This document shows, piece by piece, positions 1,337-64,000 of a stretch of 64,000 nucleotides of DNA (position 1 is the stretch's first letter; every line of letters begins with the position of its first letter). Source of the stretch: Spirochaetia bacterium. Lineage in GTDB: Bacteria; Spirochaetota; Spirochaetia; WTKD01; G963693115. The stretch lies in assembly GCA_965226055.1 (NCBI GenBank), contig CBDDCA010000005.1, positions 352,001 through 416,000 of the forward strand. The letters are read 5' to 3'. A program made the translations under genes and the position numbers. Under the pieces are notes generated by a model. It searched no databases, was not told where the DNA came from, and saw only the letters and a program-made list of their open reading frames with translations.

Positions 1337-4300
1337 TTATGTACATGCTGGATTACCTTTAAAAATCTTTGGGTGCTTGTTTGTTTTACTTTCCATAGCT
1401 GAGCCTTTGAACTCAGTAGATGATATTTGACCGTGTGAACACAATTTCCATGATGATAAATCTTGATCAAAATTACTAGTATTTTTAAATATATCAAAAA
1501 GATTTATAACATTCTTTACATTCCATTTTCCTATATTTTGATTAAAAGCACTTGCGCCACTAAACATACCATTCATAATAGTAACTTTGCTCACTTCCCA
1601 GCTTCCTATGTCTTGATTAAAAGCACTTGCGCCATTAAACATATTGTCCATCTCAGTAACTTTGCTCACATCCCAACTTCCTATGTCTTGATTAAAAGCA
1701 GAAGCTCTACCAAACATAATACCCATATTAGTTACTTTACTCACATCCCAACTTCCTATGTCTTGATTAAAAACGCTTGCACGCAAAAACATAGAGCGCA
1801 TATTCTCTACATTACTGGTGTTCCACTGTGTTATGTCTCCATTAAAAGTACTATCGCTACTAAATAAACTAAGCATATCAGTAATAGCACTGGTGTCTAT
1901 CATGTTGAGGTTGGGGCTATTGGTGTTTTGTCTCCCTGCTCCTCTTTCTGCAGTGATAATATCTTGCAGTGCTTTCTTTGTCGTTGGTCTATAATAGCTA
2001 GCTACTTGTCCTGCTAGTTTCACCAGTCCTGTCTCTACATTGATAGTCGCAAGTGCCTTTTGTCCCGAGTATGCTCCTGCAGAAGTAATGGTACACTCCA
2101 CTACCTCGTAGTTATACTCAGTTATAGCAGTATCATGTATGTTTGATTTATTTGCTGTACCTCTTATTGTTACTGTATTGGTATTTTTTGCAAATGTTAC
2201 TGCTAAGCCTGTTTCTTCTTTGAGTGTGCTGTCATCTAATGTGCTTTCATCACAGGTAAAGGTAAGTCCACTAGGACTGATACTGGTAAGTACTCTCGTT
2301 GTATTTTGTGCGAGTGCTGTGCCTACTGTTGCTGATACCTTTGTGGCGTTTCCTATCGCTACTGCTGGGGTGCTGGCAGATACTGCTGTTGCTTCTGCTG
2401 ATACTTTTGTCTTTTTAAGGCTATTTACTGCTACTGCGGTAATATAGTATTTTGTATTCAATCGTAGATTGCTTATTGTATAGCTTGTTGCTCCTGTTGG
2501 CACATCGTCTTTTTCTGCTCCTTCTTGTGCATCGCTTGCTCCTTGTGCCTGTGTTTTTACTGTTGCTCCATCTATGTTTGTTTTTGAGGCTGCATAGTAT
2601 ACTATGTAATCTATTTGATTATCTCTTAAATCAGTTCCTTCTGCTGTCGTTCCTTTTACGGTTGGGGCTGTTATGGTAAGTACTATGGTTGCTCCTTGTG
2701 CATTTGCTTGTATGGTGGGCTTTCCTGGTGCGGCATAGGCTTCTTTTGCTATAAACTCCTTGCGTAGTCCTGTTGCTTCTTTGCTGGTATCGGTGCTATT
2801 TACTGCTTGCACTACTATTTCGTAAGTTGTGCCTACTGTCAATCCTGTCAGAGTGCTGTTGGTTGTGCCTGCTGCTACTGTTGTGGAGCTTCCTGCTGCT
2901 GTTTTTATTGCTGCTACGCTTTTTGCACTGCCACTTTTGGCTACTTTGTATACTTTGTACGATACTTGTGCTACTGTTAGAGTGTCTCCTTTGTTTGTTT
3001 TGTGGCTTGCATTGAGACTGGGAGCTGTCCACGATATTGTTGCATTGCCTCCGTCTACTCCCCCTACTTGTATGTTGCTTACTTCTGCGGGAGCTGTCGC
3101 CTGTGATGCGGTTGTTACAGTTGCCACTGTCGATACTGCTTTTTTGCTTGTGTCTGTTTTTACTGCTACTTCTACCACAAAATGATACTTTGTTGCTCCT
3201 TTTATTGCTACTACTGGTGCTGTTTCACTAGACAAACCTAAACTGGCAAGAGCAGAGACAGTGTATACTCCGCTACTTGCACTGCCTATGTTTACTTTTC
3301 TGCCTCTTTGTACTTCTGCTACTGTTGGTGTTGTGTCTTTCTGTAAGCCATACACTGTGTATACTAGCTCATCATTGCTTGTTACTGTTGTGCCATCTTT
3401 GTTTTTTGCTCCTGTTATTGTGCTTAACTGTGTGAGTACGAGCTTTATTGTTCCTGCTGTGTTTGTTGAGGGTGATACTACTAGCTTGCCTGTTAAGGAC
3501 GATGTAGGGGCTGTTGCTTTTGAGGTGGGGATAGTACTCAGTTCTAGTTTTTGTATCAGTGCAGGGTCCTTGCTTTGTGCTTTCTTTGTTGCATAGGGAT
3601 TGAGGCTGTTTATTGCTTCTATGCCTATGGTGTACACTGCTCCTTTTGTTCCTATAAATGTTCCTCGTAAGCTGCTGTTTCCTGCTATCTCTTGCGTTTG
3701 CACTCCTCCCATTGCTTTTATTTCCGCTATAGTTTTAGTACTCTGGTCTCCTGCTACTATGTATACTTTGTACTGTATTTGTGCTTGTGTGAGTTGTCTG
3801 TCATTGGGGGCTTTGTGCTTACTGGTAATTGTTCCTTTTTGAAATTCGTACTGTACGGTATCGCTTGTTTGTGTTGATGTTTCGATAAACAGAGTGAGAT
3901 TTTCTGGTGCTGGGGGGACAGTGGATACTGCATCATATACTGCTACTTTATCAGTGAGCGTTGTTGGGGGGCTTACTCTGTTATTCTCTACTGTGAGAAA
4001 GGTAAAGCTATAGCTTTTTGCATTTGCTTGCGTTGAGGATACTTCTATGCCATCTGCTATGCCAAAGCTAATGGTGGTTGCTGTGTTTGTTATACTTTTT
4101 TCTGCTATCAAGTTTGTGCCATCTAACATACGCAGAGTGTAGTATCTTCCTATGCCTGGAGCTTGCTTAAATGTTGCTTTTATTTGTATTGCTCCCGTTG
4201 TTGTAACTAGGGCAGGCTTGCTTTGAAAGAGATCTTCTGAGGGAGCTGTGAGTGAGTTGGGGGTGCTTATGTCTTTTGTTGCTTGGGTGCTTTTGTTTTC

Positions 4301-6038
4301 TGAGTAATCAAGCGTGAGTATTGTTACGGTATATGTTTTTCCTTGCGTGAGTTCTTCTACAGAGAGTGATATTGTGGGATAGGCTACTTTTTTCTCATTC
4401 AGTACTGTGGTGCTTGTGCCTTTCTCTGCTATGCTTATGCTGTATTCTTTTATGTCTTTGTTGTTGACTTTTGTTATATCGGGGGCTGTCCACGTTATCT
4501 GTGTGCCTACTTTTGCTGCTGATACAAAGGGATAGCTTGCTTGTATGCTTGTCACTGCATCGGGGGCGGTGTTATCTGCTACTGTATCTACTGTGGCAGT
4601 TGCTTCTGTTCCTTTGTTGCCTGCACTGTCCATTGATACTACTGCCACTGTATACTCGGTGGTAGCTTTGAGGCCTGGTATCTGCGTGTTGCGTACTGTT
4701 CTCTCTGTTATTGTCACTGTCTTTGCTGCTGTTGTGCTGTCCTTTTCTGTTGCTGTTATAGTCACTCCTGCATAGTCTCGTACATCAGGGGCTTGCCAGC
4801 CTACTACTAGGCTTGTTGCTCCTCCTACTACACTCACATTGCTTACAGGCTCTGTGCTTTTGTCTGTTGTTGCTTGTTCTTTTGACACTGCAGTGGAGTA
4901 CTTTCCGTTTTTAAAAACATACACTTCTACTTTGTACGTAAGCGTGCCATAGAGTTTTGTGAGTGCTATGCCGTCCTTTGCTACATACACAGTGGCGTAC
5001 TCTTGATTGTCTGCACTTGCAGAACTGAGTTTGGCTGTACTGCTATTGTTCACAGTTTCCTCTGCTACTACTGTATTTGTTGCTTTTGTTGTTACTCGTA
5101 CTAAGAGGCTTTTGTCCGTAAAGGTAACATTTCCCCACTTGATAAGCAGGCTCTCATCGGCTGGGCTATTGCTTTTATCGTTTGCTGTTACTGTAAGATC
5201 TGCCTCTGGCAGTGGCGTTACTGTTTGTGAAAGCTGTGATGCTTGCACGCCTGTCAATACTGTTGTAGGACTGCTTGTGTTGTCATTTCTGTCTTTGTAG
5301 CGTATTTCTACATCATAGGATATGCCTGCAAGCGTGGAGACATTTGGAAGTATAACTTCTCCTTGTTGTAGGTTCTGCACGGTAGCTTGTGCAAGCACTA
5401 TGCCACCAGTCGTGCTTTTTACCACTATCGTTGCTTCGGCTATATCTGTTTTGCCTGATGCAAGTCGCTCTTTGTCCCATGTTATCTTTATGCCATCCCC
5501 CGACTTCTCTACTCCTACCTGTGTCAATGTGTCTTGTGGTGCAGTAGTATCTATCAGTGTTGTAACAGAGCGTGTTGTTTTTGGTGATACTTCTGTGTCT
5601 TTTTGTGCCTCTATCTCTACAGTGTAGTCGGTGAGTGCTTGTAAGCCTTTGAGTTGGTACGATTGTCCTTGTTGAAAGAGTGTTTGATATTCTATTGCAG
5701 GAACACGCACCTGTATGGACTGTGCTGGCGTTGTTGATGTAGCTTTTACGACTACATGCGTGGCATCACTGGGAGCTTCCCAGCGTAAAGCAAGTGTCCC
5801 ATCGTTGCTTGCTACTTGTATCTGCACATTGGACACTGATGCGAGTGTCGGGGTTACTGGCGTTCCCCCTCCGCCTGATGAGGAACTGCTACTGCCCTCC
5901 GAACATCCTACAAGTACGAGGGTAGTCATTGCTAGCACTACTAGTATAGTTAGGTTTTGCTTATACAAGAGTGTACCCCCCCCCCCCCCCGATTTTTTTC
6001 ACGCTGTATAGCTCTTTACTTTTGTAGCTATCATTCAT
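1337..6038 (-). CDS. Giant FN3-stalk/DUF285-tip surface lipoprotein, copy A; phase-OFF as assembled (G15 frameshift)
   Basis: AGGAG-led ATG at 6038 gives [25 protein letters not shown] (TAA 5963-5961). The main frame 5968-1337 has lipobox LVLVGC, FN3-like repeats (W.AP ... GL...T.Y.V.V) and five 25-aa [16 protein letters not shown] repeats. Confidence 0.88.
5976..5990 (-). repeat. Poly-G tract (G15) in the signal-peptide coding region of copy A
   Basis: 15 C on the + strand; G14 or G17 would restore the frame. Confidence 0.9.
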
Positions 6039-6091
6039 AGAAATACTCCTTACTATTTGTTTTATTGTATATAGTATTATACACAATAGTT

Positions 6092-6100
6092 ATTATAGCA
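6092..6100 (-). promoter_or_regulatory. Extended -10 promoter (TGCTATAAT) for copy A
   Basis: TGnTATAAT; the same upstream sequence is conserved before copy C (~60608-60616). Confidence 0.55.
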
Positions 6101-6203
6101 CAAAATAGTATTTCATATATCTGCAAAGAAAATAATAACTTTTGAACTCACGTTATCTATCCAGTATTTACTTAAAATGTACAGAATATACTATACTATA
6201 AAT

Positions 6204-8847: not shown

Positions 8848-9795
8848 CTACTGTGTTACTTGATCTATGTATTTTGCTAACTGAACATACTGTTTGACTG
8901 CTACTTCTTCTGCACGCATATGTACACTTATTGAACATGTTTCTAATAAATGGCATATACTTGCTTTTTTTTCCTCACTTGTTTTCATATCATCAAATAA
9001 CCCATTAACAGAAAGCAACATAGGAACTAAAGTATTATATAATTTTTTTCTCCTTTGACTAAACGCTGCACGTACTATAGCACATAAAAGAGAATATGCA
9101 CTATTCCCTATATGGGTATCAGGAATACAGCTAAACACAGTAGACTCCACACTCGGTACAGGATAGAATGAATCGGCAGATACAGAAAAATGATGAGACA
9201 AAGAAAAAACACTTTGCATAAGCACCGAACTTATACCATATTGGCTTTCGCCTACTGTACTCACTAAGCGATCTACCGCCTCTTTTTGTATCATATATAC
9301 AGCAGGAACATGCAACTGTTCTAAAGAGCTTATCTTTATTAAGATACGTACCGCAGAACTGTAGGGTAAATTACCACATACCACATGTGGCAATGTAGCA
9401 CCGCTTGACACATACTGCCCCAATGTTTTTTCGGCATCTCCAGAAACAATAGTAATTTTTCCCATCGCTCGTTCTTGAGCAAACTCTTTTTCTAAAAAAT
9501 GTATTATTCCATAATCAATTTCAAAGACAGTCAGCTGTACATCAGGCAATAATAATGCAGCGCTTACACTTCCTAGCCCAGGACCTATTTCCCAAATCCT
9601 TAATGGCTTTTGCTTGCCATTTATATGAGCTAACGAAAATATAAGCTGAGCTATTTTTTCTACAAAAAAATAGTTTGTAAGAAAATTTTGCCCCCATCGT
9701 TTTTTTAATGCAAGAGAATGAGTAGCAAGAAGCTCTTTAATGTTCTGTTTTTTGTAAAGAATAGTGTGCATAGTATCCCGATATAATAAAGCCAT
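8848..9795 (-). CDS. rsmA: 16S rRNA adenine dimethyltransferase RsmA/KsgA
   Basis: KKRWGQNFL, EIGPGLG, GNLPY, AFSQRRKKL; start may be 9771. Confidence 0.93.
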   Translation of the reverse strand: MALLYRDTMHTILYKKQNIKELLATHSLALKKRWGQNFLTNYFFVEKIAQLIFSLAHINGKQKPLRIWEIGPGLGSVSAALLLPDVQLTVFEIDYGIIHFLEKEFAQERAMGKITIVSGDAEKTLGQYVSSGATLPHVVCGNLPYSSAVRILIKISSLEQLHVPAVYMIQKEAVDRLVSTVGESQYGISSVLMQSVFSLSHHFSVSADSFYPVPSVESTVFSCIPDTHIGNSAYSLLCAIVRAAFSQRRKKLYNTLVPMLLSVNGLFDDMKTSEEKKASICHLLETCSISVHMRAEEVAVKQYVQLAKYIDQVTQ

Positions 9796-15802: not shown

Positions 15803-18800
15803 CTATTTAGAAGATGGTCCTGTATAGGTTCCTCCTGCCCAATCTGGTGTCTTATGTCTTATAGCAGTACCAGCAAATGCATTTATCGCATTAACCTTTT
15901 TTGATCCAAAATGTTCTTTCCATTCATAGATATCTCTATCAAATGCTGTTGCACCATTAAACATGTGAAACATATTAGTAAGACTGCTGACATCCCACCC
16001 TGCTATATCCCTATTAAACGCATGATTGTCCCAAAACATATTTTTCATATTTTTAACCTTACTTACATTCCAGCCTGATATATTCGCACTAAATGGGCGA
16101 GCATAGCGTAACCCATAGGATGAAAACATATGTTCCATATTCGTAACATTACTGACATCCCAGCCTCCTATACGACTATTAAAACCATCTGTGCTTGCAA
16201 ACATATAGCTCATATCTGTCACTTTCCCTACCTTCCAGTCTTTTATATCTCCAGTAAATTTTGATTGTTGAAACATATATGCCATATCGGTAACATTACT
16301 CACATCCCACCTTGATATATCCCCATTAAATTTCGATATATAAAACATAGATCGCATAGTGGTAACATTACTCACATCCCAGTTTGATATATCCTTATTA
16401 AAACTCGATTCATGAAACATACCTTTCATACTTGTCACATTCCCTACCTTCCAGTCTGATATATCTCCATTAAATCTTGAATTACGAAACATATTGTACA
16501 TAAATTTCACATTATCTACCTTCCATTTTGATATATTCCCCTTAAATGATGTATTAATAAACATATTACTCATATCGGTAACATTACTCACATCCCACCC
16601 CGATATATCTCCCCTAAATGATGATGTATGAAACATACTACTCATATCGGTAACATTACTCACATCCCACCCCGATATATCTCCGTTAAATGATGATGCA
16701 TGAAACATACCTCCCATATCGGTAACATTACTCACATTCCAACCTGATATATCCCCATTAAATTTCGATTTATAAAACATACCTCTCATATTTTTCACTT
16801 TATCTACCTTCCACCCCGATATATCTCCGTTAAATGATGATGTACTAAACATACTTTCCATATCTTCTACTTTATCTACCTTCCAACCCGATATATCTCC
16901 ATTAAATGATGTACCCCAAAACATACGATTCATATCGGTAACATTACTCACATCCCATCTTGCTATATTCCCATTAAATTTTCTCAAAAAACGATCATTA
17001 AATACCTTACTCATATCCCTAATATTTCCTGTGTATATGACATTCAAATCTGCTCTATTATTAGTAGATATCATCTGCCTTATTGCTTTTATCAATTCTG
17101 CTTTATTCGTAGGTCGATATTGATATGTCCAGCTTGGTATTTTATCATTAGGTATCTTAGTCCTATCAAATATCCCTGGTATGTTTATTTTCCTTCCTGC
17201 TACATGCTCTCCCCATGCTTCTAAATCTTGATTAAACTCTGTTGCTCCGTTAAACATATATGCCATAGTAGTTACTGTATCAACTGCCCAGCCCGATATA
17301 TCTTGATTAAAGGCAGTTGCCTTGTAAAACATATAATCCGTATCGGTAACTTTCTTTACATTCCACCTTGATATATCTCCATTAAATTGCGCATAAGCAA
17401 ACATAAAGTACATAGTAGTAACATTACCGACATCCCAACCCGATATATCTTTAGTAAATGGCGAATCATAAAACATTGCTTCCATATCAGTAACATTACT
17501 TACATCCCATTTCGATATATCCCCATTAAATTGCGATTTATAAAACATATGTTCCATATTACCAACACTACTTACATCCCAGCCTGATATATCCCCATTA
17601 AATTGCGATTCACGGAACATCCAGTACATCTGTTCTACATCACTTACATCCCAGCCTGATATATCTCCAGTAAACTGCGATTTATAAAACATACCTTGCA
17701 TATATCTCACATTGCTTACATCCCAGCTTGATATATCTCCAGTAAATCGACTCTCCTTAAACAAATTTCGCATATTTCTCACATTACTTACATCCCAGCC
17801 CGATATATCCCCATTAAAACTTTTCAAAGCACTGTCATAAAATACCTCACGCATATCTCTTATGTATCCTGTATATATTCCATTCAAGTCTGCTGTGTTC
17901 CCATCAGGGTTACCATCCCCATCAGCATCTGCTGCCATCACCGTTTTTATATTTGCTATCAAAGCACTCTTTGTTTTTGGGTAGTATGTATATGTACCAC
18001 TGCCGTCATATATGTGTATGGTAAACTCTTTTGTACGCCTTTTTCCTGCATAATCACCAGTCCCTGTAAACACAATTATATATTTTCTCAGTGCAAGTGC
18101 TTTTGTAGGACTTCCGCTTATTGTTCCATTCACTGCACTAAATGTCAAGCCTGTGTCTGCAGTAAAGGTACTTGGCAGTATACTATAGTCCCCTGTCGCA
18201 TTAAATGTACTCACTCCAGTATTAGTCAATGGAATACTAATGTTCTGTTGCCCTTTTACCATAGTAAATAATGAAGCAACATTGCCTCCATATCTCTGTG
18301 ATATGCTATATATCCAGCTCGGTATATTTTCATCAGAAACATTAGCACCGGTAAATATATTTCCCTTATCCACTGTTCTTCCTGCTATATGCTCTCCCCA
18401 TGCTTCTAAATCTTGATCAAACGCTGCTGCTTTGCGAAACATGTCTTTTATGGTAGTTACACTATCAACTGCCCACCCTGCTATATCTCCATTAAATTTC
18501 GATTGATAAAACATGGCATACATGTTTGTAACATTACTTACCTTCCACTTTGATATATCTCCATTAAATGATGATCCCCAAAACATATATTTCATATTAC
18601 CAACACTACTTACATCCCATTCTGATATGTCTCCAGTAAATGGCGTTTCAGTAAACATTGCTTCCATATCAGTAACATTACTTACATCCCATTGTGATAT
18701 ATCTTCATTAAATGGTGCATAGGAAAACATATAGTGCATAAAAGTAACATTACTTACATCCCAGCCCGATATATCCCCATTAAATTTTGATTGATAAAAC

Positions 18801-21800
18801 ATTGTTCGCATGGTTGTAACATTACTTACGTCCCATTGCGATATATCTCCATTAAATTGCGATTGATAAAACATAGATCGCATGGTTGTAACATTACTTA
18901 CGTCCCATTGCGATATATCTCCATTAAATTTTTTCAAATCACCATAACTACTAAATAACTTATACATATCCGTGATATTCCCCGTATAGATGACATTCAA
19001 ATCAGCACTGTTATCATTAGGACTCCCATCATCATTGGTATCCATCACATCCTTTATCGCTGCTATCAACTCCGCTTTATTGGTAGGAGAGTAACTATAC
19101 TTTCCTGCTGCTACTGTCATGATAAATGGTATCTCATAGCTTTTGCTTGCATAGTCTCCTGTTCCACTAAAGAGCAGTGTATAGCTTTTTGTACTTTGTA
19201 CTTTTGTTGGACTCCCACTTATCGCTCCTGTACTTGCATCTAAGCTAAGCCCTATATCTGTTATGCTCGGAGAGATAGTATAACTCCCCACTGCCGTAGT
19301 AGGCAATTTCTTACTTACTGTTATTACCCCATCTGCTTCTATGGCTTTGCCTACAAACCCACTTATAGTACTGCTTTCGGTTCCTCCAACTGTAAGCACA
19401 AAATCGTAGAGCCATGTAGGTATGTTTTTATCAGAGAGTATCACTCCACTATTATCTGCGGTATTGAATATTTTATCAGTATTTACTGTTCTTTCTGCTA
19501 TATGTTCTCCCCATGCTTCTAAATCCTTATCAAAGGCTGTTGCCCCTTGAAACATTGACTCCATAGTAGTCACAACATCAACTGCCCAGCTTGATATATC
19601 TTGATTAAATGCTCCTGTTTCACTGAACATCTGTTTCATAGTAGCTACCTTGCTTACATTCCAATAGGATATGTCCTTATCAAATGCTGTGTTCTTATAG
19701 AACAGTAATTCCATATCTGCAACATTTCGAACATCCCATAGGGTTATATCATTGTTATACGCTGTTTCTCGAAACATCTCGTTCATAGTTGTGACATTCC
19801 TTACATCCCAGCCTGATATATCCCCTGCATATGATGATTTCTTAAACATATCATTCATATCTGTTATGTTCCCTACATCCCAACTTGTTATGTCTCCATT
19901 TTCTCCTGTAAACTTCGATTCTTCAAACATACTGTCCATCGTAGTTACATTACTTACATCCCAGCCCGATATATCCCCATTAAAATTTCTCAAGGCACTC
20001 TCATTAAATATCCCACTCATATCTGTTATATACCCTGTATATATGACATTCAAGTCTGCTGTATTCCCATCAGGGTTACCATCTCCATCAGCATCTGCTG
20101 CCATCACCGTTTTTATATCTGCTATCAAAGCTGCATTTGTTTTAGGGGTATAAGTATAAGCACTCACATCCTGTATCGTGAGAGTGAGAGGGGTACTTTT
20201 TTTCCTGCCAACATACCCTCCATTTCCTGTAAATGTTATGGTATACTCTTTTGTAGCCAATGCTACCGTAGGAGAACCACTTATCTCTCCAGTTGCTGTA
20301 TCAAATGTCAATCCTGTATCTGTAGTAAATGTATTGGGTACTACACTATAAGTTCCTGTTGCTGCTTTTGGTGTTTTGTCAATAGACAGAACAATATTTT
20401 TATCACTCGTAGTGAACACTTTCTTATTTACTGTAACGCCTGTATCTTTGTACACAAGAGTATATACCCATGATGGAATTTTTTCATCAGGTAAATGAGA
20501 AAATATACCTGTTATATCCAGTGATTTTCCTGATTCTGTTATCTCTGGTATATGCTCTCCCCATGCTTCTAAATCTTGATCAAACGATGTTGCACCATTA
20601 AACATTTTATACATAGTAGTGACTTTCTCAACATTCCACCCTGATATATTCTGATTAAAGACTTTTGATTGATAAAACATTGTCCGCATAGTAGTAACAT
20701 TACTTACATCCCAGCCCGATATATCCCCATTAAATGACGAATCCCAAAACATATGTTTCATATTACCAACACTACTTACATCCCATCTTGATATGTCTCC
20801 AGTAAATGGCGTTTCAATAAACATTGCTTCCATATTAGTAACATTACTTACATCCCAGCCCGATATATCCCCATTAAATTGCGCATAGGCAAACATAAAG
20901 TACATAGTAGTAACATTACTTACATCCCATTTTGATATATCCCCATTAAATGGTGCATAGGCAAACATTATTGCCATATTAGTAACATTACTTACATCCC
21001 AGCCCGATATATCCCCATTAAATGACGAACCACGAAACATAGATCCCATATAAGTAACATTACTTACATCCCATTTTGATATATCCTCATTAAATTTCGA
21101 TTTATAAAACATAGATCCCATAGTAGTAACATTACTTACATCCCAGCCCGATATATCCCCATTAAAATTTCTCAAGGCACTCTCATTAAATATCCTACTC
21201 ATATCCGTGATATTCCCCGTATAGATGACATTCAAATCGGCACTGTTATCATCTGGCGTCCCATCACCGTTTATATCCATTACCTTTTTTATTGCTGCTA
21301 TCAATTCTGTTTTGTTATTAGGAAAATACGCATATTTCCCTTGATTTGACTTTACCTCTAATAAAAATGGGATAACAAGACTCTTGCCTTGAAACTTAGC
21401 GTCTCCAGTAAAAGTAATTGTATATGCTTTTTTTGCTACTTCTTGCGTTGCTATTCCTTTTATTATTCCCTTTTGTGCATCAAATGATAATCCTGTATCT
21501 GCACTAAGTGTATTGGGTGCTATACTATATTGTCCTGTCGCATGTGATGGAAATTGCTTTTTAATCCTCACTACTATGTTTTGATATTGCAACACAGTAA
21601 TATCGTTTATTCTTGCTTCTTGATATATCACATCAAACACATATGCCCATGTAGGTATCTTTTCATCAGACACACTAGCACTATCAAATATATCTGTTTT
21701 ATCTACTGTCCTTCCTGCTATATGCTCTCCCCATGCTTCCAAATCTTGATCAAACGCTTTTGTTGAATTAAACATATTCTCCATAGTAGTTACCGCATCA

Positions 21801-23226
21801 ACTGCCCAGCCTGATATATCCTGATTAAAGGCAGTCGCTCCTTCAAACATACCATCCATAGTGGTAACTTTCTTTACATCCCAATTTGATATATTTCCAT
21901 TAAATCGCGATCCACGAAACATCTCTTTCATTTCTCTTACATTACTGACATCCCAACTTGATATGTCCCCAGTAAATTGTGAGTCACGAAACATACTATT
22001 CATTTCTCTCACATTACTTACATCCCAGCCTGATATATTTCCAGTAAACTTTGATCCTCGAAACATCTCATTCATATATTTCACTTTACTGACATCCCAG
22101 CCCGATATATCTCCAGTAAAATGTTTCAACATACTATCATTAAATATACCACTCATATCCGTAATAGCACTGACATCAATGCTATTGAGATCTGCTGTAG
22201 CATTATCAATAATCCCATTCCCATCAGCATCTACTATCACTTTTATGAGTGCTATCAGCTCTGCTTTTGTCTTAGGTTGTGTCGAATAATCCTTCACTGA
22301 TACCGATACAGCTGCTTGCACATTTTTATTTACTGCTTTATCAAATTCTCCTGTCCCATTAAAAGTAACAGTAAACCTGTGAGGACTTCCTTTTGTTATC
22401 GTCTTAAGGTCTCCTGCATTTGCTGTTATTGTCCCTGTCGTACCATCAAAATTCATCCCTGTTGGAAGTACATCTCTCCCTACTAACACTGGGAGTAATG
22501 CAAATGTTCCTGTTGTTGTTACTGGCCACCGAGTGATAGACACATTCACTGCCCGTCCTACTATTGCTACTACTACCTTTGGCTCTAACAGCACCTCTAA
22601 TGTCAACCATCTGGGATCCTCAGTAACTCCCGAATTCTTAAATACATCTTTACTCACTTTACTTACCGCAGGTGCTACTGCCCATTGCTTCAGATCCTGA
22701 GTAAAAGCAGCTGTTCCTTCAAACATGCTGTTAATCTGTTTTACATTACTTACATCCCAGCCTGATATATCCCCATTAAATTTGGTCGCTCCCTTAAACA
22801 TAGTATTCATGTTTGTTACTTTGCTTACATCCCACCTTGATATCCCTCCACGAAACCCTGTCACTCCTTCAAACATACCACTCATATTTGTTACATGGCT
22901 TACATCCCACTCCGACACATTGCCACTAAAGGTAGGAAACTGCACAAACAAATTACTCATATCAGAAACCTTACTTACATCTATATCGTTTAAGTCTGCT
23001 GCCTTGTCTTTACTCAACCGCTCAGAGATAAGCTGTAATAATTGTTCTTTTGAGCTAGGTTGTACCTTTCCTCCTCCCCCTCCTGGAGCAGGAGAAGATC
23101 CTCCACCAGAGCCCCCTCCTGGAGCTTCACAACCCAATAGTAGTAGTACTAGTATCAATAGTAGCATTACCCCCCCCCCCCCCATATATACAGATTGCTA
23201 TGTATAAACAAATTATTTTTTCTCAT
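15803..23226 (-). CDS. ~2470-aa multi-module DUF285 (BspA-like) / Ig-like surface lipoprotein; phase-OFF as assembled (G14)
   Basis: AAGGAG-led ATG at 23226 gives MRKNNLFIHSNLYIWGGGG*. The downstream frame has LLLLGC lipobox, 7 blocks of 24-aa FNGDISGWDVSNV..M..MF repeats, 5 Ig-like spacers (GL.FD...G.I.G) and DxDxDG loops. Confidence 0.88.
23170..23183 (-). repeat. Poly-G tract (G14) in the signal-peptide coding region
   Basis: 14 C on the + strand; G12 or G15 joins the MRKNN leader to VMLLLILVLLLLGC. Confidence 0.9.
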
Positions 23227-31513: not shown

Positions 31514-31549
31514 CTATAGCAAGAAAGGAGCTATCCTTTCTTGCTATAG
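31514..31549. terminator. Conserved 3' hairpin of copy B
   Basis: CTATAGCAAGAAAGGA-gcta-TCCTTTCTTGCTATAG, perfect 16-bp stem. Confidence 0.7.
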
Positions 31550-36215: not shown

Positions 36216-36230
36216 AAAAAAAAAAAAAAA
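36216..36230. repeat. A15/T15 homopolymer upstream of the copy B promoter
   Basis: 15 A on the + strand, 37-51 nt upstream of a minus-strand TATAAT (36174-36179). Confidence 0.8.
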
Positions 36231-36389: not shown

Positions 36390-36578
36390 ATGCAATGTTG
36401 TAATACTTGTCAATGTACAACAGGTGATGAAATATGCTGTTCATGTACCTGTAATGAAACTATAAATGATTGTTGTAATGAAATAAAACATAACAACTGT
36501 TCATGTACTTGTGATGAAACTACAGGCTATAATTGTACCCCACATCACACAGCTAGCATTCATTGTAGTTGCAATTAG
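36390..36578 (+). CDS. 62-aa cysteine-rich peptide, metallothionein-like
   Basis: TAAGGAG RBS, TATAAT at 36354; 16 Cys and 4 His in CC/CxC/CxCxC clusters. Confidence 0.7.
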   Translation: MQCCNTCQCTTGDEICCSCTCNETINDCCNEIKHNNCSCTCDETTGYNCTPHHTASIHCSCN

Positions 36579-48630: not shown

Positions 48631-48662
48631 ACTGTTGAACATAAAAAGATAAAACATATAAC

Positions 48663-51334: not shown

Positions 51335-51352
51335 AAAAAACTCCTTACATTC

Positions 51353-51382
51353 TTTATATTTAAGACATATCTTAAATATAAA
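51353..51382. other. AT-rich hairpin between narK and the nitrate reductase gene
   Basis: TTTATATTTAAGA-cata-TCTTAAATATAAA. Confidence 0.5.
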
Positions 51383-51391
51383 TGATAAAAT

Positions 51392-52666: not shown

Positions 52667-52699
52667 AGTATCCCTCCTAATAATATACAATCTATGTAT

Positions 52700-52729
52700 A
52701 TTATAGCATATTTTTAAATATGCGTGCAA
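52700..52729 (-). promoter_or_regulatory. Sigma70 promoter with a palindromic spacer (candidate operator)
   Basis: TTGCAC-18nt-TATAAT; the spacer GCATATTT-aa-AAATATGC is an 8-2-8 inverted repeat. Confidence 0.65.
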
Positions 52730-55930: not shown

Positions 55931-55966
55931 CTATAGCAAGAAAGGAGCTATCCTTTCTTGCTATAG
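55931..55966. terminator. Conserved 3' hairpin of copy C
   Basis: Identical to the copy B hairpin. Confidence 0.7.
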
Positions 55967-55987: not shown

Positions 55988-58900
55988 CTATGAGCTACAT
56001 TGTGCAGATCCTTTGAATTTTGGATGTTTATTTGAAACTCCATCTAAAGGTGAACCTAAAAACATAGTGCCAATATCAGCTCCATCTGGTTTGAAATTAC
56101 ACATTTTCAAAGATGATAAATCTTGATTAAATACAGAGGCAGCGGTAAACATACTTATTGCATTACTAACCTTACTTACATCCCAATTTCCTATGTTTTG
56201 ATTAAATTTTTCAGCGCCAGCAAATATACTATGCATATTAGTAACCTCACTCACATCCCAATCTCCTATGTTTTGATCAAAAGCACTTGCTAGCTTAAAC
56301 ATACCCAGCATACTTGTTACATTACTGGTATTCCACCGTGTTATATTTCCATTAAAAATTTTATCATTATTGAATAAATCACTCATATCAGTAATGGCAC
56401 TGGTATCTATCATGTTGAGGTTGGGGCTATTGGTGTTTTGTCTGCTTGCTCCTCTTTCTGCAGTGATAATATCTTGCAATGCTTTCTTCGTTGTTGGTCT
56501 GTAATAGCTAGCTACTTGTCCTGCTAGCTTCACCAGTCCTGTCTCTACATTGATAGTCGCAAGTGCCTTTTGTCCTGAGTATGCTCCTGCAGAAGTAATG
56601 GTACACTCCACTACCTCATAGTTATACTCAGTTATAGCAGTATCATGTATGTTTGATTTATTTGCTGTGCCTGTTATTGTTACTGTATTGGTATTTTTTG
56701 CAAATGTTACTGTTAGACCTGTTTCTTCTTTGAGTGTGCTGTCATCTAAGGTGCTTTCATCACAGGTAAATGATAGTCCACTAGGACTGATACTGGTAAG
56801 TACTCTCGTTGTATTTTGTGCAAGTGCTGTGCCTACTGTTGCTGATACCTTTGTGGTATTTCCTATCGCTACTGCTGGTGTGCTGGCAGATACTGCTGTT
56901 GCTTCTGCTGATACTTTTGTCTTTTTAAGGCTGTTTACTGCTACTGCGGTGATATAGTATTTTGTATTCAATCGTAGATTGCTTATTGTATAGCTTGTTG
57001 CTCCTGTTGGCACATCATCTTTTTCTGCTCCTTCTTGTGCATCACTTGCTGCTTTTGCTTGCGTTTTTACTGTTGCTCCATCTATGTTTGTTTTTGAGGC
57101 TGCATAGTATACTATGTAATCTATTTGATTATCTCTTAAATCAGTTCCGTCTGCTGTCGTTCCTTTTACGGTAGGGGCTGTTATGGTAAGTACTATGGTA
57201 ACTCCTTGTGCATTTGCTTGTATGGTGGGCTTTCCTGGTGCGGCATAGGCTTCTTTTGCTTCAAATTCCTTTCGAACTCCTGTTGCTTCTTTGCTGGTAT
57301 CGGTGCTGTTTACTGCTTGTACTACTATTTCGTAAGTTGTGCCTACTGTCAATCCTGTCAGAGTGCTGTTGGTTGTATCTGCTGCTACTGTTGTGGAGCT
57401 TCCTGCTGCTGTTTTTATTTGTGCTACGCTTTTTGCACTGCCACTCTTGGCTACTTTGTATACTTTGTACGATACTTGTGCTACTGTTAGGGCATCTCCT
57501 TTGTTTGTTTTGTGGCTTGCATTGAGGCTGGGGGCTGTCCACGATAGCGTTGCACTCCCTCCTGTTACTCCCCCTACTTGTATGTTGCTTACTTCTGCGG
57601 GGGCAGTCGCTTGTGATGCGGTTGTTACACTTGCCACTGTCGATACTGCTTTTTTGCTTGTGTCTGTTTTTACTGCTACTTCTACCACAAAGTGATACTT
57701 TGTTGCTCCTTTTATTGCTACTACTGCTGCTGTTTCACTAGACAAGCCTAAACTGGCAAGGGCAGAGACAGTGTATACTCCGCTCCTTGCTGTGCCTATG
57801 TTTACTTTTCTCCCTCTTTGTACTTCTGCTACGGTAGCAGTGCTGTCTTTCTGTAAGCCGTACACTGTGTATACTAGCTCATCATTGCTTGTTACTGTTG
57901 TGCCATCTTTGTTTTTTGCTCCTGTTATTGTGCTTAACTGTGTGAGTACGAGCTTTATTGTTCCTGCTGTGCTTGTTGAGGGTGATACTACCAGCTTGCC
58001 TGTTAAGGACGATGTAGGGGCTGTTGCTTTTGAGGTAGGGATAGTGCTCAGTTCTAGTTTTTGTATCAGTGCGGGATCTTTGCTTTGTGCTTTCTTTGTT
58101 GCATAGGGATTGAGGCTGTTTATTGCTTCTATGCCTATGGTGTATACTGCTCCTTTTGTTCCTATAAATGTTCCTCGTAAACTGCTGTTTCCTGCTATCT
58201 CTTGTGTTTGTACTCCTCCCATTGCTTTTATTTCCGCTATGCTTTTAGTACTCTGGTCTCCTGCTACTATGTATACTTTGTACTGTATTTGTGCTTGTGT
58301 GAGTTGTCTGTCGTTGGGTGCTTTGTGGTTACTGGTAATTGTTCCTTTTTGAAACTCATACTGTACGGTATCGCTTGTTTGTGTTGATGTTTCAATAAAC
58401 AGTGATAGGCTTTCTGGTGCGGGTGGGACAGTGGATATTGCATCATGTACTGCTACTTTGTCAGTGAGCGTTGTTGGGGGGCTTACTCTGTTATTTTCTA
58501 CTGTGAGAAAGGTAAAGCTATAGCTTTTTGCATTTGCTTGTGTTGATGATACTTCTACGCCATCTGCTATGCCAAAGCTAATGGTGGTTGCTGTTCTTGT
58601 TATGCTTTTTTCTGCTACCAAGTTTGTGCTATCTAACATACGCAGAGTGTAGTATCTTCCTATGCCTGGAGCTTGCTTAAATGTTGCTTTTATTTGTATT
58701 GCTCCTGTACTTGTGTCTAGGGCGGGCTTGCTTTGAAAGAGATCTTCTGACGGAGCTGTGAGTGAGTTGGGGGTTGTTATGTCTTTTGTTGCTTTGCTAC
58801 TTTTGTTTTCTGAGTAATCATAGGTGAGTATTGTTACGGTATATGTTTTGCCTTGCACAAGTTCTTCGACAGAGAGTGATGTTGTGGGATAGGGTATTTT

Positions 58901-60554
58901 CTTCTCGTTCAGTACTGTGGTGCTTGTGCCTTTCTCTGCTATGCTTACACTGTATTCTTTTATGTCTTTGTTATTGGCTTTTGTTATATCGGGGGCTGTC
59001 CATGTTATCTTGTGTGCCTACCTTTGTATTTGATACAAAAGGATAGCTTGCTTGTATGCTTGTCACTGCATCGGGGGCGGTGCTATCTGCTGCTGTGGTT
59101 ACTGTGGCTGTTGCTTCTGTTCCTTTATTGCCTACACTGTCCATTGATACGACTGCCACTGTATACTCGGTGGTTGCTTTGAGGCCTGTTATCTGCGTGT
59201 TGCGTACTGCTCTCTCTGTTATTGTCACTGTCTTTGCTGGAGAACTGCTGTCCTTTTCTGTTGCTGTTATAGTCACTCCTGCATAGTCTCGTACATCGGG
59301 TGCTTGCCAGCCTACTACTATGCTTGTTGCTCCTCCTACTACACTTACATTGGTCGCGGGCTTTGTTGTCTTGTCTGTTGTTGCTTGTTCTTTTGACACT
59401 GCAGTAGAGTACTTTCCGTTTTGAGAAACATACACTTCTACTTTGTACGTAAGCGTGCCGTAGAGTTTTGTGAGGGCTATGCCGTCCTTTGCTACATACA
59501 CAGTTGCATATTCTTTGTTTTGTGCGGTTGCACTGCTGAGTGCTGCAGTACTGCTATTGTTCACAGTTGCTTCTGCTACTACTGTATTTGTTGCTTTTGT
59601 TGTTACTCGTACTAAGAGGCTTTTGTCGGTAAAGGCAAAGCTCCCCCACATAATAAGCAAGCTCTCATCGGCTGGGCTATTGCTTTTATCGTTTGCTGTT
59701 ACTGTAAGGTCTGATGCAGAAAGTGGCGTTACTGTTTGTGAAAGCTGGGATGCTTGCACGCCTGTCAATACTGTTGTAAGACTGCTTGTGTTGTCATTTC
59801 TGTCTTTGTAGCGTATTTCTACATCATAGGATATGCCTGCAAGCGTGGAGACATTTGAAAGTATAACTTCTCCTTGCTGTAGGTTCTGCACGGTAGCTTG
59901 TGCAAGCACTATGCCACCAGTTGTGCTTTTTACCACTATCGTTGCTTCGGCTATATCTGTTTTGCCTGATGCAAGTCGCTCTTTGTCCCATGTTATTTTT
60001 ATGCCATCCCCCGATTTCTCTACTCCTACCTGTGTCAATGTGTCCTGTGGTGCAGTAGTATCTACCAGTGTTGTCACGGAGCGTGTTGTTTTTGGTGATA
60101 CTTCTGTGTCTTTTTGTGCTTCTATCTCTACGGTGTAGTTGGTGAGGGCTTGTAAGCCTTTGAGTTGGTACGATTGTCCTTGTTGAAAGAGTGTTTGATA
60201 TTCTATGGCAGGAACACGCACTTCTATTGATTGTGCTGGTGTCGTTGATGTAGCTTTTACTACTACATGCGTGGCATCACTGGGAGCTTGCCAGCGTAAC
60301 GAGAGCGTCCCATCGTTGCTTGCTGCTTGTATCTGCACATTGGACACTGATGCGAGTGTCGGTGCTACTGGTGTTCCCCCTCCGCCTGATGAGGAACTGC
60401 TACTGCCCTCCGAACATCCTACGAGTATGAGGATTGCTAGCACTAAAAATAATGCTACTAGAGTTAGGTTTTGCTTATATTGAGAGTGTACCCCCCCCCC
60501 CCCCCCGATTTTTTTCACGCTGTATAGCTCTTTGCTTTTGTAGCTATCATTCAT
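55988..60554 (-). pseudogene. Giant FN3-stalk/DUF285-tip lipoprotein, copy C; poly-G in frame but +1 frameshift at ~59010
   Basis: ORFs 60554-58971 and 58858-55988 are collinear with A/B; CAG ATA has become CAAGATA (extra base at 59010-59011). Confidence 0.82.
60491..60506 (-). repeat. Poly-G tract (G16) in the signal-peptide coding region of copy C (in frame)
   Basis: 16 C on the + strand; reads [16 protein letters not shown]. Confidence 0.9.
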
Positions 60555-60646
60555 AGAAATACTCCTTACTATTTGTTTTATTGTATATAGTATTATACAC
60601 AATAATATTATAGCACAAAATAGTATTTTATATATCTATAAAGAAC

Positions 60647-60678
60647 ATAGCAAGAAAGGAACTATCCTTTCTTGCTAT
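60647..60678. terminator. Conserved 3' hairpin of copy D, abutting the copy C promoter
   Basis: ATAGCAAGAAAGGA-acta-TCCTTTCTTGCTAT. Confidence 0.7.
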
Positions 60679-60705
60679 AAGCTGTATTTCTATACTATGC
60701 TACGA

Positions 60706-63700
60706 CTAAGGACATGCTACTTTATCAGTGCTATCTTTTGGGTACTGTGCCGTTTTTCCCTCCATAGCCGAACCTGAGAAATCAGAATTCTTAATTCTTA
60801 CTTTACATATTTTCCATGATGATAAATCTTGATCAAAATTAGAGGCATCCTCAAAAATATCGCTAATGTGATTAACACTCGCTACTTTCCAATTTCCTAT
60901 GTCTTTATTAAAAGATGTTCTACGAAACATCGAATCCATCTTTGTAACACTACTCACATCCCAGCTTCCTATATCTTGATTAAAGGCACTTGCTCCATTG
61001 AACATATCACTCATCATAATAACCTTACTCACATCCCAATCTCCTATATCTTGATTAAAAGCACTTGAGTTCAAAAACATATATTGCATATTTCCTACAT
61101 TACTGGTATTCCACCGTGTTATGTCTCCATTAAAAGTACTATCGCTATCAAATAAACTACTCATATCTATAATAGCACTGGTGTCTATTATGCTGAGGTT
61201 GGGGCTATTAGTGTTTTGTCTGCCTGCTCCTCTTTCTGCAGTGATAATAGCTTTAAGTTCTGTCCTGCCTGTTGGTCTATAATAGCTAGCTGACTGTCCT
61301 GCTAGTTTCACCAGTCCTGTCTCTACATTGATAGTCGCAAGTACTTTTCCTCCTGAATAAGATCCCGAAGTAATTGTACATTGCACTACCCCATAGTTAT
61401 ACTCAGTAATAGCAGAGTCATGTATGTTTGATTTATTTGCTATGCCTGTTATCGTTACTGTATTGGTATTTTTTGCAAATGTTACTGTTAAGCCTGTTTC
61501 TTTTTTGAGTGTGCTGTTATCGTTATCTATTGTGCTTTCATCACAGGTAAATGATAGTCCACTAGGACTAATACTGGCAAGTACTCTCGTAGTATGTGCT
61601 GATGTTGGTGCTGAGCCTACTGTTGCTGATACCTTTGTGGTATTTCCTATCGCTACTGCTGGTGTGCTGGCAGATACTGCTGTTGCTTCTGCTGATACCT
61701 TTGTCTTTTTGAGGCTGTTTACTGCTACTGCGGTGATATAGTATTTTGTATTCAATCGTAGGTTGCGTATTGTATAGCTTGTTGCTCCTGTTGGTACATC
61801 GTCTTTTTCTGCTCCTTCTTGTGCATCACTTGCTCCTTGTGCTTGTGTTTTTACTGTTGCTCCATCTATGTCTTTTGTTGAGGCTGCATAGTATACTATA
61901 TAATCTATTTGATTATCTCTTAAATCAGTTCCATCTGCTGTCGTTCCTTTCACAGTAGGGGCTGTTATGGTAAGTACTATGGTAACTCCTTGTGCATTTG
62001 CTTGTATGGTGGGCTTTCCTGGTGATACATAGGCTTCTTTTGCTATAAACTCCTTGCGTTCTCCTGTTGCTTCTTTGTTGGTATCGGTGCTGTTTACTGC
62101 TTGTACTACTATTTCGTAAGTTGTGCCTACTGTCAATCCTGTCAGAGTGCTGTTGGTTGTGCCTGCTGCTACTGCTGTGGAGCTTCCTGCTGCTGTTTTT
62201 ATTGCTGCTACGCTTTTTGCACTGCCACTCTTGGCTACTTTGTATACTTTGTACGATACTTGTGCTACTGTTAGGGTAGCTCCTTTGTTTGTTTTGTGGC
62301 TTGCATTGAGGCTGGGGGCTGTCCACGATATTGTTGCATTGCCTCCGTCTACTCCCCCTACTTGTATGTTGCTTACTTCTGCGGGGGCAGTCGCTTGTGA
62401 TGCGGTTGTTACACTTGCCACTGTCGATACTGCTTTTTTGCTTGTGTCTGTTTTTACTGCTACTTCTACCACAAAATGATACTTTGTCGCTCCCTTTATT
62501 GCTACTACTGGTGCTGTTTCGCTAGACAAGCCTAAACTGGCAAGGGCTGGTACTGTGTACACTCCACTACTTACACTGCCTAGGTTTACTTTTCTGCCTG
62601 CAAGTACTTCTGCTACTGTTGGAGTGGTGTCTTTCTGTAAGCCGTATACTGTGTATACGAGCTCATCATTGCTTGTTACTGTTGTGCCATCTTTGTTTTT
62701 TGCTCCTGTTATTGTGCTTAACTGTGTGAGTACGAGCTTTATTGTTCCTACTGTGTTTGTTGAGGGTGATACTACCAGCTTGCCTGTTAAGGACGATGTA
62801 GGGGCTGTTGCTTTTGAAGTAGGGATAGTGCTTAATTCTAGTTTTTGTATCAGTGCAGGGTCTTTACTTTGTGCTTTCTTTGTCGCATAGGGATTGAGGC
62901 TGTTTATTGCTTCTATACCTATGGTGTATACTGCTCCTTTTGTTCCTATAAATGTTCCTCGTAAGCTGCTGTTTCCTGCTATCTCTTGCGTTTGTACTCC
63001 TCCCATTGCTTTTATTTCACCTATGCTTTTAGTACTCTGGTCTCCTGCTACTATGTATACTTTGTACTGTATTTGTGCTTGTGTGAGTTGTCTGTCGTTG
63101 GGTGCTTTGTGCTTGCTGGTAATTGTTCCTTTTTGAAAATCATACTGCACGGTATCGCTTGTTTGTGTTGATGTTTCAATAAACAGAGTGAGATTCTCTG
63201 GTGCGGGTGGGACAGTGGATACTGCATCATATACTGCTACTTTATCAGTGAGCGTTGTTGGAGGGCTTACTCTGTTATTTTCTACTGTAAGAAAGGTAAA
63301 GCTATAGCTTTTTGCATTTGCTTGCGTTGAGGATACTTCTATGCCATCTGCTATGCCAAAGCTAATGGTGGTTGCTGTACTTGTTATGCTTTTTTCTGCT
63401 ACCAAGTTTGTGCCATCTAACATACGCAGGGTGTAGTACTTATTTGATCCAGGAGCTTGCTTAAATGTTGCTTTTATTTGTATGACTCCTGTTGTTGTGT
63501 CTAGGGCAGGCTTGTTTTGAAAGAGATCTTCTGAGGGAGCTGTGAGTGAGTTGGGGGTGGTTATGTCTTTTGTGGCTTGGCTACTTTTGTTTCCTGCATA
63601 GTCTATGGCTTGTATTGTTATGGTGTATGTTTTGCCTTGCGTGAGTTCTTCTACAGAGAGTGATGTTGTGGGATAGGGTATTTTCTTCTCACTCAGTACT

Positions 63701-64000
63701 GTGGTGCTTGTGCCTTTTTCTTGTATGCTCACGCTGTACTCTTTTATGTCTTTGTTATTGGCTTTTGTTACATCAGGGGCTGTCCATGTTATCTGTGTGC
63801 CTATCTTTGCTGCTGATACAAAAGGGTAGCTTACTTGTATGTTTGTCACCGCATCGGGGGCGGTGCTATCTGCTGCTGTGCTGACTGTGGCTGTTGCTTC
63901 TGTTCCTTTGTTGCCTGCACTGTCCATTGATACGACTGACACTGTATACTCGGTGGTTGCTTTGAGGCCTGTTATTTGTGTGTTGCGTATTGTTCTCTCT
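60706..64000 (-). CDS. Giant FN3-stalk/DUF285-tip lipoprotein, copy D (5' part outside window)
   Basis: Frame open to the window edge ([20 protein letters not shown]); stalk near-identical to A-C; four tip repeats. Confidence 0.9.
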   Translation of the reverse strand, partial: ERTIRNTQITGLKATTEYTVSVVSMDSAGNKGTEATATVSTAADSTAPDAVTNIQVSYPFVSAAKIGTQITWTAPDVTKANNKDIKEYSVSIQEKGTSTTVLSEKKIPYPTTSLSVEELTQGKTYTITIQAIDYAGNKSSQATKDITTPNSLTAPSEDLFQNKPALDTTTGVIQIKATFKQAPGSNKYYTLRMLDGTNLVAEKSITSTATTISFGIADGIEVSSTQANAKSYSFTFLTVENNRVSPPTTLTDKVAVYDAVSTVPPAPENLTLFIETSTQTSDTVQYDFQKGTITSKHKAPNDRQLTQAQIQYKVYIVAGDQSTKSIGEIKAMGGVQTQEIAGNSSLRGTFIGTKGAVYTIGIEAINSLNPYATKKAQSKDPALIQKLELSTIPTSKATAPTSSLTGKLVVSPSTNTVGTIKLVLTQLSTITGAKNKDGTTVTSNDELVYTVYGLQKDTTPTVAEVLAGRKVNLGSVSSGVYTVPALASLGLSSETAPVVAIKGATKYHFVVEVAVKTDTSKKAVSTVASVTTASQATAPAEVSNIQVGGVDGGNATISWTAPSLNASHKTNKGATLTVAQVSYKVYKVAKSGSAKSVAAIKTAAGSSTAVAAGTTNSTLTGLTVGTTYEIVVQAVNSTDTNKEATGERKEFIAKEAYVSPGKPTIQANAQGVTIVLTITAPTVKGTTADGTDLRDNQIDYIVYYAASTKDIDGATVKTQAQGASDAQEGAEKDDVPTGATSYTIRNLRLNTKYYITAVAVNSLKKTKVSAEATAVSASTPAVAIGNTTKVSATVGSAPTSAHTTRVLASISPSGLSFTCDESTIDNDNSTLKKETGLTVTFAKNTNTVTITGIANKSNIHDSAITEYNYGVVQCTITSGSYSGGKVLATINVETGLVKLAGQSASYYRPTGRTELKAIITAERGAGRQNTNSPNLSIIDTSAIIDMSSLFDSDSTFNGDITRWNTSNVGNMQYMFLNSSAFNQDIGDWDVSKVIMMSDMFNGASAFNQDIGSWDVSSVTKMDSMFRRTSFNKDIGNWKVASVNHISDIFEDASNFDQDLSSWKICKVRIKNSDFSGSAMEGKTAQYPKDSTDKVACP

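Follow-up and report, generated by a model that had tools for sequence, protein, structure and literature searches.

A probably phase-variable, recombining family of giant stalk lipoproteins with leucine-rich-repeat-like tips in a spirochaete

The closest described relatives of the system reported here are the PARCEL/DUF285 lipoproteins of the Mollicutes (MAG1330 and MAG3260 of Mycoplasma agalactiae, and those of M. capricolum). They share the same repeat family (PF03382/TIGR02167) and lipoprotein anchoring with four giant genes, A to D, that we find in a 64,000-nucleotide (nt) stretch of a spirochaete metagenome assembly (genome G000, contig C5, positions 352001-416000; hereafter the window). 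In M. capricolum, PARCEL lipoprotein genes are described as having homopolymer or dinucleotide repeats in the 5' flank (PMC2996958). Unlike in the Mollicutes, the host here is a spirochaete, the repeats make up only a short C-terminal tip on a 1300-amino-acid (aa) FN3 stalk, and the copies number about 40 or more, show concerted evolution of the stalk and have a family-specific 3' hairpin.

Precedent for homopolymer switching in a spirochaete comes from Treponema pallidum, where phase variation through poly-G tracts is documented for tpr and further genes encoding outer-membrane proteins, together with length variation within isolates; the tracts described there measure about 7-11 G, belong for the most part to promoters and affect transcription (PMC7864442). 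The likeness to our system is that variable-length G runs are found at surface-protein genes of a spirochaete; unlike the tracts described for T. pallidum, those reported here are 9-18 G long, lie in signal-peptide codons and would act on the reading frame, and the proteins are unrelated. Lipoprotein gene families in which each gene has a promoter-associated simple repeat and expression is combinatorial are represented by Vlp of M. hyorhinis and Vmc/Vmm of M. capricolum/M. mycoides. VlsE of Borrelia, TprK of T. pallidum and pilE/pilS of Neisseria have variable surface segments between conserved sequence, in combinations made by recombination. The BspA-type families, namely Tannerella BspA and the large BspA-like family reported for Trichomonas vaginalis (PMC2843621), resemble the present one in being large surface-protein families with repeats of the leucine-rich repeat (LRR) type. 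The NCBI name for DUF285 proteins is in fact 'BspA family leucine-rich repeat surface protein'. To our knowledge, there is no report of per-gene homopolymer switches together with a concerted common stalk in BspA-type families.

We consider it probable that genes A to D belong to a multigene family of stalk lipoproteins with LRR tips that is both phase-variable and recombining; judged from sequence, variable adhesion or antigenic display is its likely role. The first-pass annotation of the window had proposed that such an architecture was undescribed. This stands for the combined design in this host, and word searches of the open literature found no paper describing this lipoprotein family; it does not stand for the components, as PARCEL lipoproteins and T. 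pallidum poly-G phase variation are both known. What is new is the lineage of the host, the pairing of a long FN3 stalk and a short LRR-like tip, the size that the family reaches, the presence of two alternative switch modules in one family, concerted stalks beside diversifying tips, and hairpin-bounded tip exchange. Our evidence comes from two metagenome assemblies: G000 itself (2.25 Mb, 35% G+C, 6 contigs, 89% complete) and G001, a same-genus genome in a single contig that is 93% complete.

The four paralogues sharing a stalk that the first-pass annotation had picked out are real, and they understate the family, which comprises 13 near-identical copies and about 40 relatives. In G000, 92 open reading frames (ORFs) match A, and the 65 of these that have at least 1000 aa together occupy 15% of the genome. 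The 13 near-identical copies (class I) are 85-91% identical to A at the aa level along their whole length (tblastn); within the window, the same measure gives A an identity of 90.9% with B, 85-89% with C and 85.4% with D. About 8 further copies are 55-58% identical to A throughout, and about 14 resemble A only in the N-terminal 886 aa, at 63-72% identity. G001 carries 40 family loci and is the only genome with the family among 40 relatives surveyed, two others giving weak FN3 matches only. A scan of 185,579 species genomes likewise returned 40 loci, all on one record of 2,360,799 bases and at the coordinates of G001, and a 600-aa stalk query against 1.84 billion protein representatives returned just 7 at E <= 1e-30. 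A search of JGI metagenome contigs for the leader-plus-poly-G pattern had 0 matches, and 0 relatives of the stalk protein were confirmed among 167 pattern matches.

The layout of A and B is that of a signal peptide with the lipobox L-V-G-C, a Ser/Gly linker, about 1300 aa with 4-5 Pfam FN3 stretches and a C-terminal DUF285 (PARCEL) block. In A, B and most family ORFs this L-V-G-C comes after a hydrophobic stretch, and on this signature the family members are bacterial lipoproteins, predicted to be lipid-anchored. The protein may be pictured as a lipid anchor and Ser/Gly linker leading into an FN3/Ig-like stalk, then a helical linker and an LRR-like tip. All four window genes exceed the PF03382 cut-off of 25 bits (A, 194.7; B, 125.3; C, 119.3; D, 192.9), and the TIGR02167 PARCEL model scores 63.6 bits against a cut-off of 30. 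With NF045896 (the Mbov_0838 family, cut-off 500), A stays below at 136.6 bits, and a fifth, differently built DUF285 gene of the window scores 955.7 bits, a value reached only by summing 21 repeat stretches. From 30 tips we obtained 95 repeat units, each exactly 25 aa long, in which F1, W8 and F20 are invariant and entropy peaks at positions 7, 15, 17, 18, 21, 22 and 25; the same seven positions are recovered from the G000 units alone and from the G001 units alone. These peaks coincide with the V-x-x-M-x-x-M-F-x-x pattern to which variation had been assigned in the first-pass annotation. The repeat numbers given there for A to D (5, 3, 3 and 4) also agree with ours, the 6, 4, 4 and 5 motifs that we count amounting to those numbers of full 25-aa units, and the C-terminal Cys pair said to be kept is invariant in 21 of 21 aligned tips.

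AlphaFold2 modelled the tip blocks with confidence scores (pLDDT) of 77-97 and one beta-bridge residue per 25 residues, at repeat position 15; the Ig-like part before the tip was poorly modelled. When the tip model was compared with known structures by VIA-align, all 50 listed matches were LRR-type solenoids, the top scores being those of RPP1 (Z 12.4; root-mean-square deviation 3.5, 190 aligned) and T. pallidum TpLRR 6mlx (Z 12.0). Foldseek found nothing in the PDB at E <= 0.001 with the same model (best E 0.09), a PDB sequence search with the tip gave no match at E <= 0.01, and a homologue search with residues 1150-1523 was dominated by many-repeat DUF285 proteins of other phyla. The tip is predicted to be an LRR-like solenoid of 4-6 turns with a disulfide-type cap, and its seven variable positions probably line one face of that solenoid, a placement that follows from the 25-residue periodicity of the DSSP beta-bridges.

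The division between a constant stalk and a sharply divergent tip, claimed earlier from four genes, is borne out over the 13 class-I copies: in 150-nt windows, nt identity is 0.84-0.98 in the stalk, drops to 0.52-0.58 over the tip and is about 0.25 for the flanks. Comparison of the two genomes indicates how the stalks are kept alike. The DNA next to the genes mostly shows 94-97% identity between G000 and G001, and stalk identity is 0.93-0.956 within a genome and 0.87-0.895 between genomes. Furthermore, we found that: (i) all 30 copies compared (13 from G000, 17 from G001) have their nearest stalk in their own genome; (ii) pairs of loci that share flanks fit this own-genome pattern too (J/L009 0.885; L/L010 0.887); (iii) a FastTree phylogeny of the stalk splits G000 from G001 with support 1.0 and (iv) identical stalk runs extend up to 811 nt within a genome, the longest between genomes being 150 nt. 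Given that loci are shared by synteny and yet have their nearest stalks in their own genome, recombinational homogenisation accounts for the pattern and separate recent expansions do not. Homologous recombination among copies keeps the stalks of a genome similar, a case of concerted evolution. The ratio of nonsynonymous to synonymous substitution rates (dN/dS) in the stalk is 0.22-0.33 (C omitted for its frameshift), which indicates purifying selection.

The candidate switches lie in homopolymers at the 5' ends of the genes. G000 has 32 G/C runs of at least 9, and 21 of them are in giant lipoprotein leaders: 15 in the context seen in A, 3 in a second context and 3 in that of the fifth gene. 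These leader runs are G9-G18, inside signal-peptide codons (a G20 occurs elsewhere in G000), and tract lengths among paralogues are 9-16. In the window there are 12 overlapping matches to G12 or longer, compared with 0 in 100 shuffles, and a T14 run was likewise found in 0 of 100 window shuffles. Two of the 14 assessable A-type (type-1) leaders in G000 are in frame, one of them that of the broken gene C, and 12 are out; when tracts were altered in silico by +/-1 and +/-2, all 12 out-of-frame genes opened with one G more or one G fewer, giving ORFs of 1554-1609 aa. In G001, 34 of 40 loci have a G11-G18 leader (7 in frame, 27 out). At flank-sharing loci the tract lengths of the two genomes differ: J has G11 and L009 G14, and C6:627688 has G14 and L007 G12.

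A second kind of leader carries a T run. Among G000 family ORFs, 24 have T13-T27 upstream instead of a G run (three genes have both), in a genome with just 29 A/T runs of at least 12 in total; in G001, four loci have a T14-T16 run and no G run, and in one of these a T15 lies within the reading frame. Unlike a promoter-spacer switch of the Vlp type, the T run of these B-type (T-type) leaders ends 33-36 nt upstream of a conserved TATAAT, beyond the site of a -35 box and not in the spacer. The G-type 5' module at window positions 5990-6130 and 60510-60650 includes a degenerate T-run remnant ('ttttcttt') where T-type genes hold T13-T27, from which the two switch modules appear to have one ancestral promoter. 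Each gene would have its own promoter and its own hypermutable homopolymer of G type or T type. Slippage of a G run inside signal-peptide codons would change the reading frame, and a T run upstream of TATAAT could, judging by its position, tune transcription; slipped-strand mispairing of either kind might turn single genes ON or OFF at random and so shift the combination of tips on cells. Outside the window, G14-G20 runs are also present at C1:13372, C3:96327, C4:27722 and C6:662400, in a repeated context unrelated to lipoprotein leaders; C5:644322 and C6:715624 are another such pair.

Within the window, the states that the first-pass annotation had assigned from sequence largely hold. A is OFF by its G15 tract: the frame opened by the ATG linked to a Shine-Dalgarno (SD) sequence at 6038 meets a stop at 5961, and G14 or G17 would give an open frame of 1566-1567 codons in silico. 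B is confirmed as intact with a different leader; the T15 run upstream of it had been missed. C is ON by its tract, G16 placing the leader in frame, and is interrupted internally by one extra A, as described. D, followed past the window end, has an intact reading frame and a B-type leader, the T tract of which has degenerated to T4-C-T5. The fifth DUF285 lipoprotein gene does have the G14 tract attributed to it and is one of three genes with a common poly-G leader of their own type. Translation from its SD-linked ATG reaches a TAA after 19 aa, and a tract of G15 or G12 would give the full frame; an alternative ATG that includes the tract's first G is in frame with G14 and has no obvious SD sequence. 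The ON/OFF state of this gene is therefore ambiguous.

A static adhesin repertoire is the alternative that survives best. It would make the homopolymers decay hot spots that silence most copies, or sites of RNA polymerase slippage with low expression of all of them. Long homopolymers do cause transcriptional slippage, just 9 of 48 G-type leaders are in frame, and C has a second frameshift, all of which suit this explanation. We nevertheless think it unlikely. Our reasoning is that every out-of-frame copy except C gives an uninterrupted frame, of 1530-1609 codons, after a 1-nt change in its tract, and uninterrupted frames behind the tract disfavour decay. In addition, the tracts are found at the same leader position in two genomes with lengths that differ between flank-sharing loci, and the stalk is under purifying selection.

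Evidence that tips have moved comes from a comparison of 43 G000 tips with 39 complete G001 tips. Thirteen of the 43 have a G001 counterpart at 84% nt identity or more. For 10 of these the downstream flank could be matched as well; it leads to the G001 locus of the tip match in 4 cases and to another locus in 6. Starting instead from the 20 G000 loci with a conserved downstream flank, the best G001 tip is at the same locus in 5 and elsewhere in 15. The reshuffling that the first-pass annotation had suggested is supported to the extent that tips have changed places between loci, and from one stalk class to another, after the split of two genomes of about 95% identity. The tip of A is a case in point, being 93% identical at the nt level to that of L102, a non-syntenic G001 locus with a class-III-like stalk and an unrelated flank. 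The upstream flank of A matches L008 and its downstream flank L012, whose tip is 44% identical at the aa level. The A upstream flank is joined to a G-type leader in G000 and to a T-type leader in G001, so that 5' modules have been re-paired as well. At L013, a tip 91% identical to that of E is followed by the downstream flank of C, and the similarity switches within about 100 nt past the stop codon, which places the break at the position of the hairpin.

The conserved 3' hairpin reported earlier, with a 15-bp stem, is present after all four window genes. That of A folds at -27.2 kcal/mol (z = -4.8), and 26 of the 27 hairpin cores in G000 lie downstream of a family gene, of whichever class, at a distance of no more than 120 nt. 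Tips, flanks and 5' switch modules enter new combinations between loci, with exchange on the 5' side able to draw on the long homology of the stalk and the 3' break falling at the short conserved hairpin.

The chromosomes have been rearranged at these genes too, and several rearrangements between G000 and G001 break inside family genes. One G001 family gene joins the upstream flank of B to the downstream flank of A, and another the upstream flank of A to the downstream flank of F; the 25-kb segment between A and B (6000-31500) therefore sits elsewhere in G001, with break points inside family genes. The tandem genes D and C (55988-64000) correspond to the single G001 gene L013, which has the upstream flank of D, the downstream flank of C and an E-like tip; either G000 has undergone a duplication or recombination has caused a deletion in G001. 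All family genes on C5 are minus-strand genes; on C6 the minus strand carries them as far as about 730 kb and the plus strand from 818 kb on, which suggests that they are co-oriented with replication. With such co-orientation, recombination between copies would yield deletions and duplications, not inversions.

Movement of tips between loci, and a layout in which a variable tip lies between conserved stalk and conserved hairpin, would also be expected if silent tip cassettes were copied into one expressed gene by programmed gene conversion of the VlsE, TprK or pilE/pilS kind. We regard this as very improbable. Every copy is full length, with its own promoter, SD sequence, ATG, leader, TATAAT module and switch. 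When the 13 class-I tips of G000 were compared with the genome by blastn, no second copy at 85% identity or more over at least 70 nt was found, save for the H/L pair at 86%; a separate tip comparison gave one further pair, at 94.7%. No donor cassettes were found in the giant DUF285 genes. A search for mosaics between tips recovered, at 92% identity or more, only framework segments of 45-55 nt and the conserved first ~100 nt, with no mosaics of variable segments. A system with neither a single expression site nor silent cassettes is not of the VlsE/TprK/pilS type, and exchange is seen here between genomes only; the likeness to VlsE and TprK drawn in the first-pass annotation does not hold in these respects. 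The other part of that proposal, a repertoire of different tips on a shared stalk, is supported, with LRR-like tips and each gene behind a hypermutable homopolymer.

The tips themselves have a history different from that of the stalks. Tip dS is 0.55-0.59, within and between genomes alike, and stalk dS is 0.14-0.28. Whole-tip dN/dS is about 0.6; pooled over ten related tip pairs, it is 1.36 at the seven hypervariable positions, 0.42 in the framework and 0.38 in the rest. In the four closest tip pairs dN/dS reaches 2.1-8.9 at hypervariable positions, with only 1-3 synonymous changes each. An excess of nonsynonymous change in the tip, which the first-pass annotation had proposed to look for, is seen at the seven repeat positions, where dN/dS is above 1. 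These substitution patterns show tips that are old and distinct, with fast change at the presumably exposed repeat positions; the tips escape concerted evolution as the stalk is homogenised. Restriction of the variation to seven positions per 25-aa repeat, in a framework conserved at 92-98% nt identity, might also bring to mind a diversity-generating retroelement or some other targeted mutator acting on exposed positions. We give this hardly any credence, there being no template-like second copy of any tip and no reverse transcriptase PF00078 in G000 (89% complete) or G001 (93% complete), in a search whose control matched in 3 of 14 genomes.

It is extremely improbable that misassembly of a repeat-rich metagenome bin has produced the copies or the way they pair with flanks, as flanks and tip are unique to each copy, 40 loci are present in an independent single-contig genome and the C tip is reproduced without a difference by contigs of two public runs, even if several of the six G000 contigs end inside family genes and short-read contigs break at stalk and hairpin. 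A 266-nt contig of run X5 with 16 differences from the C tip was set aside; it starts inside the repeated hairpin and is not anchored to the C locus.

Several observations weigh against a phase-variable, recombining family. No indel at a tract was seen among the 23 of 42 rows listed from assembled contigs of public runs, which are broken in the stalk and at the hairpin and have rare variants dropped. In-frame calls require homopolymer lengths to be exact, and those of a metagenome assembly may be wrong by one; joins across 4-kb repeats in such assemblies could be chimeric, though those between tip and flank are short. Both genomes have MutS, so missing mismatch repair does not aid slippage, and we ruled out its loss as a cause of instability. 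A simple sigma-70 consensus scan called no gene-strand promoter at the conserved TATAAT of A or B, and for this reason the role of the T tract is argued from position and conservation. The dN/dS test was applied to sites picked by their variability, which favours a high dN, and to very few synonymous changes. Finally, 30 of the 43 G000 tips have no counterpart at 84% or more, and tip identity between the genomes never exceeds 96%; shuffling alone does not, therefore, account for tip diversity.

We can also entertain, as a tentative and on balance doubtful extension, that the long stalk and the 27-copy hairpin act as recombination handles, and that whole LRR tips are swapped at appreciable frequency among the ~40 expressible loci, possibly with DNA from relatives. 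Together with the two kinds of switch this would amount to a distributed system for varying antigens and adhesins that has neither a dedicated expression site nor a silent archive.

Table 1. Positions of the lipoprotein genes of the window and of their tracts, tips and hairpins.
Feature	Position	Strand	Remarks
A	1337..6038	-	Giant lipoprotein: ATG 6038, lipobox LVGC, FN3 stalk, DUF285 tip; Pfam DUF285 E 4.5e-58, fn3 E 3.3e-24
A poly-G tract	5976..5990	-	G15, in signal-peptide coding leader
A tip	1337..1900	-	6 repeat motifs, C-terminal cap with Cys pair, stop codon; unique within G000
A 3' hairpin	1285..1311	-	Family-specific, 15-bp stem, no U tract
B	31570..36117	-	Intact frame, T-type leader (MKKSNEKLNYQ...)
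T tract upstream of B	36216..36230	-	T15; end is 36 nt before conserved TATAAT
B tip	31570..31989	-	4 repeat motifs
B 3' hairpin	31518..31545	-	
C	55988..60554	-	Leader in frame at G16; +1 A near 59011, giving 543 + 956 aa
C poly-G tract	60491..60506	-	G16, in leader
C tip	55988..56410	-	4 repeat motifs
C 3' hairpin	55935..55962	-	
D	60706..64000	-	In tandem with C; gene continues 1304 nt past window end
D tip	60706..61188	-	5 repeat motifs
D 3' hairpin	60649..60676	-	Directly upstream of C promoter and leader module
Fifth gene	15803..23226	-	2460-2474-aa lipoprotein, 19 DUF285 stretches and He_PIG Ig domains
Fifth-gene poly-G tract	23170..23183	-	G14

Some other genes of the window deserve mention. 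Between the upstream region of B and clpB, a small ORF on the plus strand (36336-36578) encodes 80 aa, or 62 aa from an internal start (MQCC), with about 15 Cys in C-x-C and CC patterns; it has the look of a metallothionein or of a Cys-rich peptide precursor. An 815-aa OmpA-domain protein (39454-41901, minus strand) with FlgD-Ig-like and Lsa66-like stretches, all under curated cut-offs, may be another adhesin, linked to the surface or to peptidoglycan. A fragment of a ComEC/Rec2-like competence protein (9737-11047, minus strand; 436 aa) has a TIGR00360 domain above cut-off, and DNA uptake could be an import route for tip variants. At 47371-52729, MoeA, a molybdopterin oxidoreductase (Fdh-alpha/NasC-like, under cut-offs) and a NarK-family transporter are clustered.

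If the switches work as proposed, a free-standing spirochaete lineage of gut type would have stochastic, per-gene switching of PARCEL lipoproteins in the style of mycoplasmas, involving about 15% of its genome. If tips are in addition swapped among expressible loci, the resulting distributed system, with no expression site and no archive, would have an organisation unlike every classical system. The short hairpin is a directly checkable candidate for the 3' edge of exchange, and the family's repeats are break points both for assembly and for chromosome rearrangement in this lineage. Within each gene there is a division of labour in which the stalk is homogenised by recombination and a tip that presumably binds ligands is kept diverse; with concerted evolution and diversifying selection side by side in one gene, the family constitutes a natural experiment.

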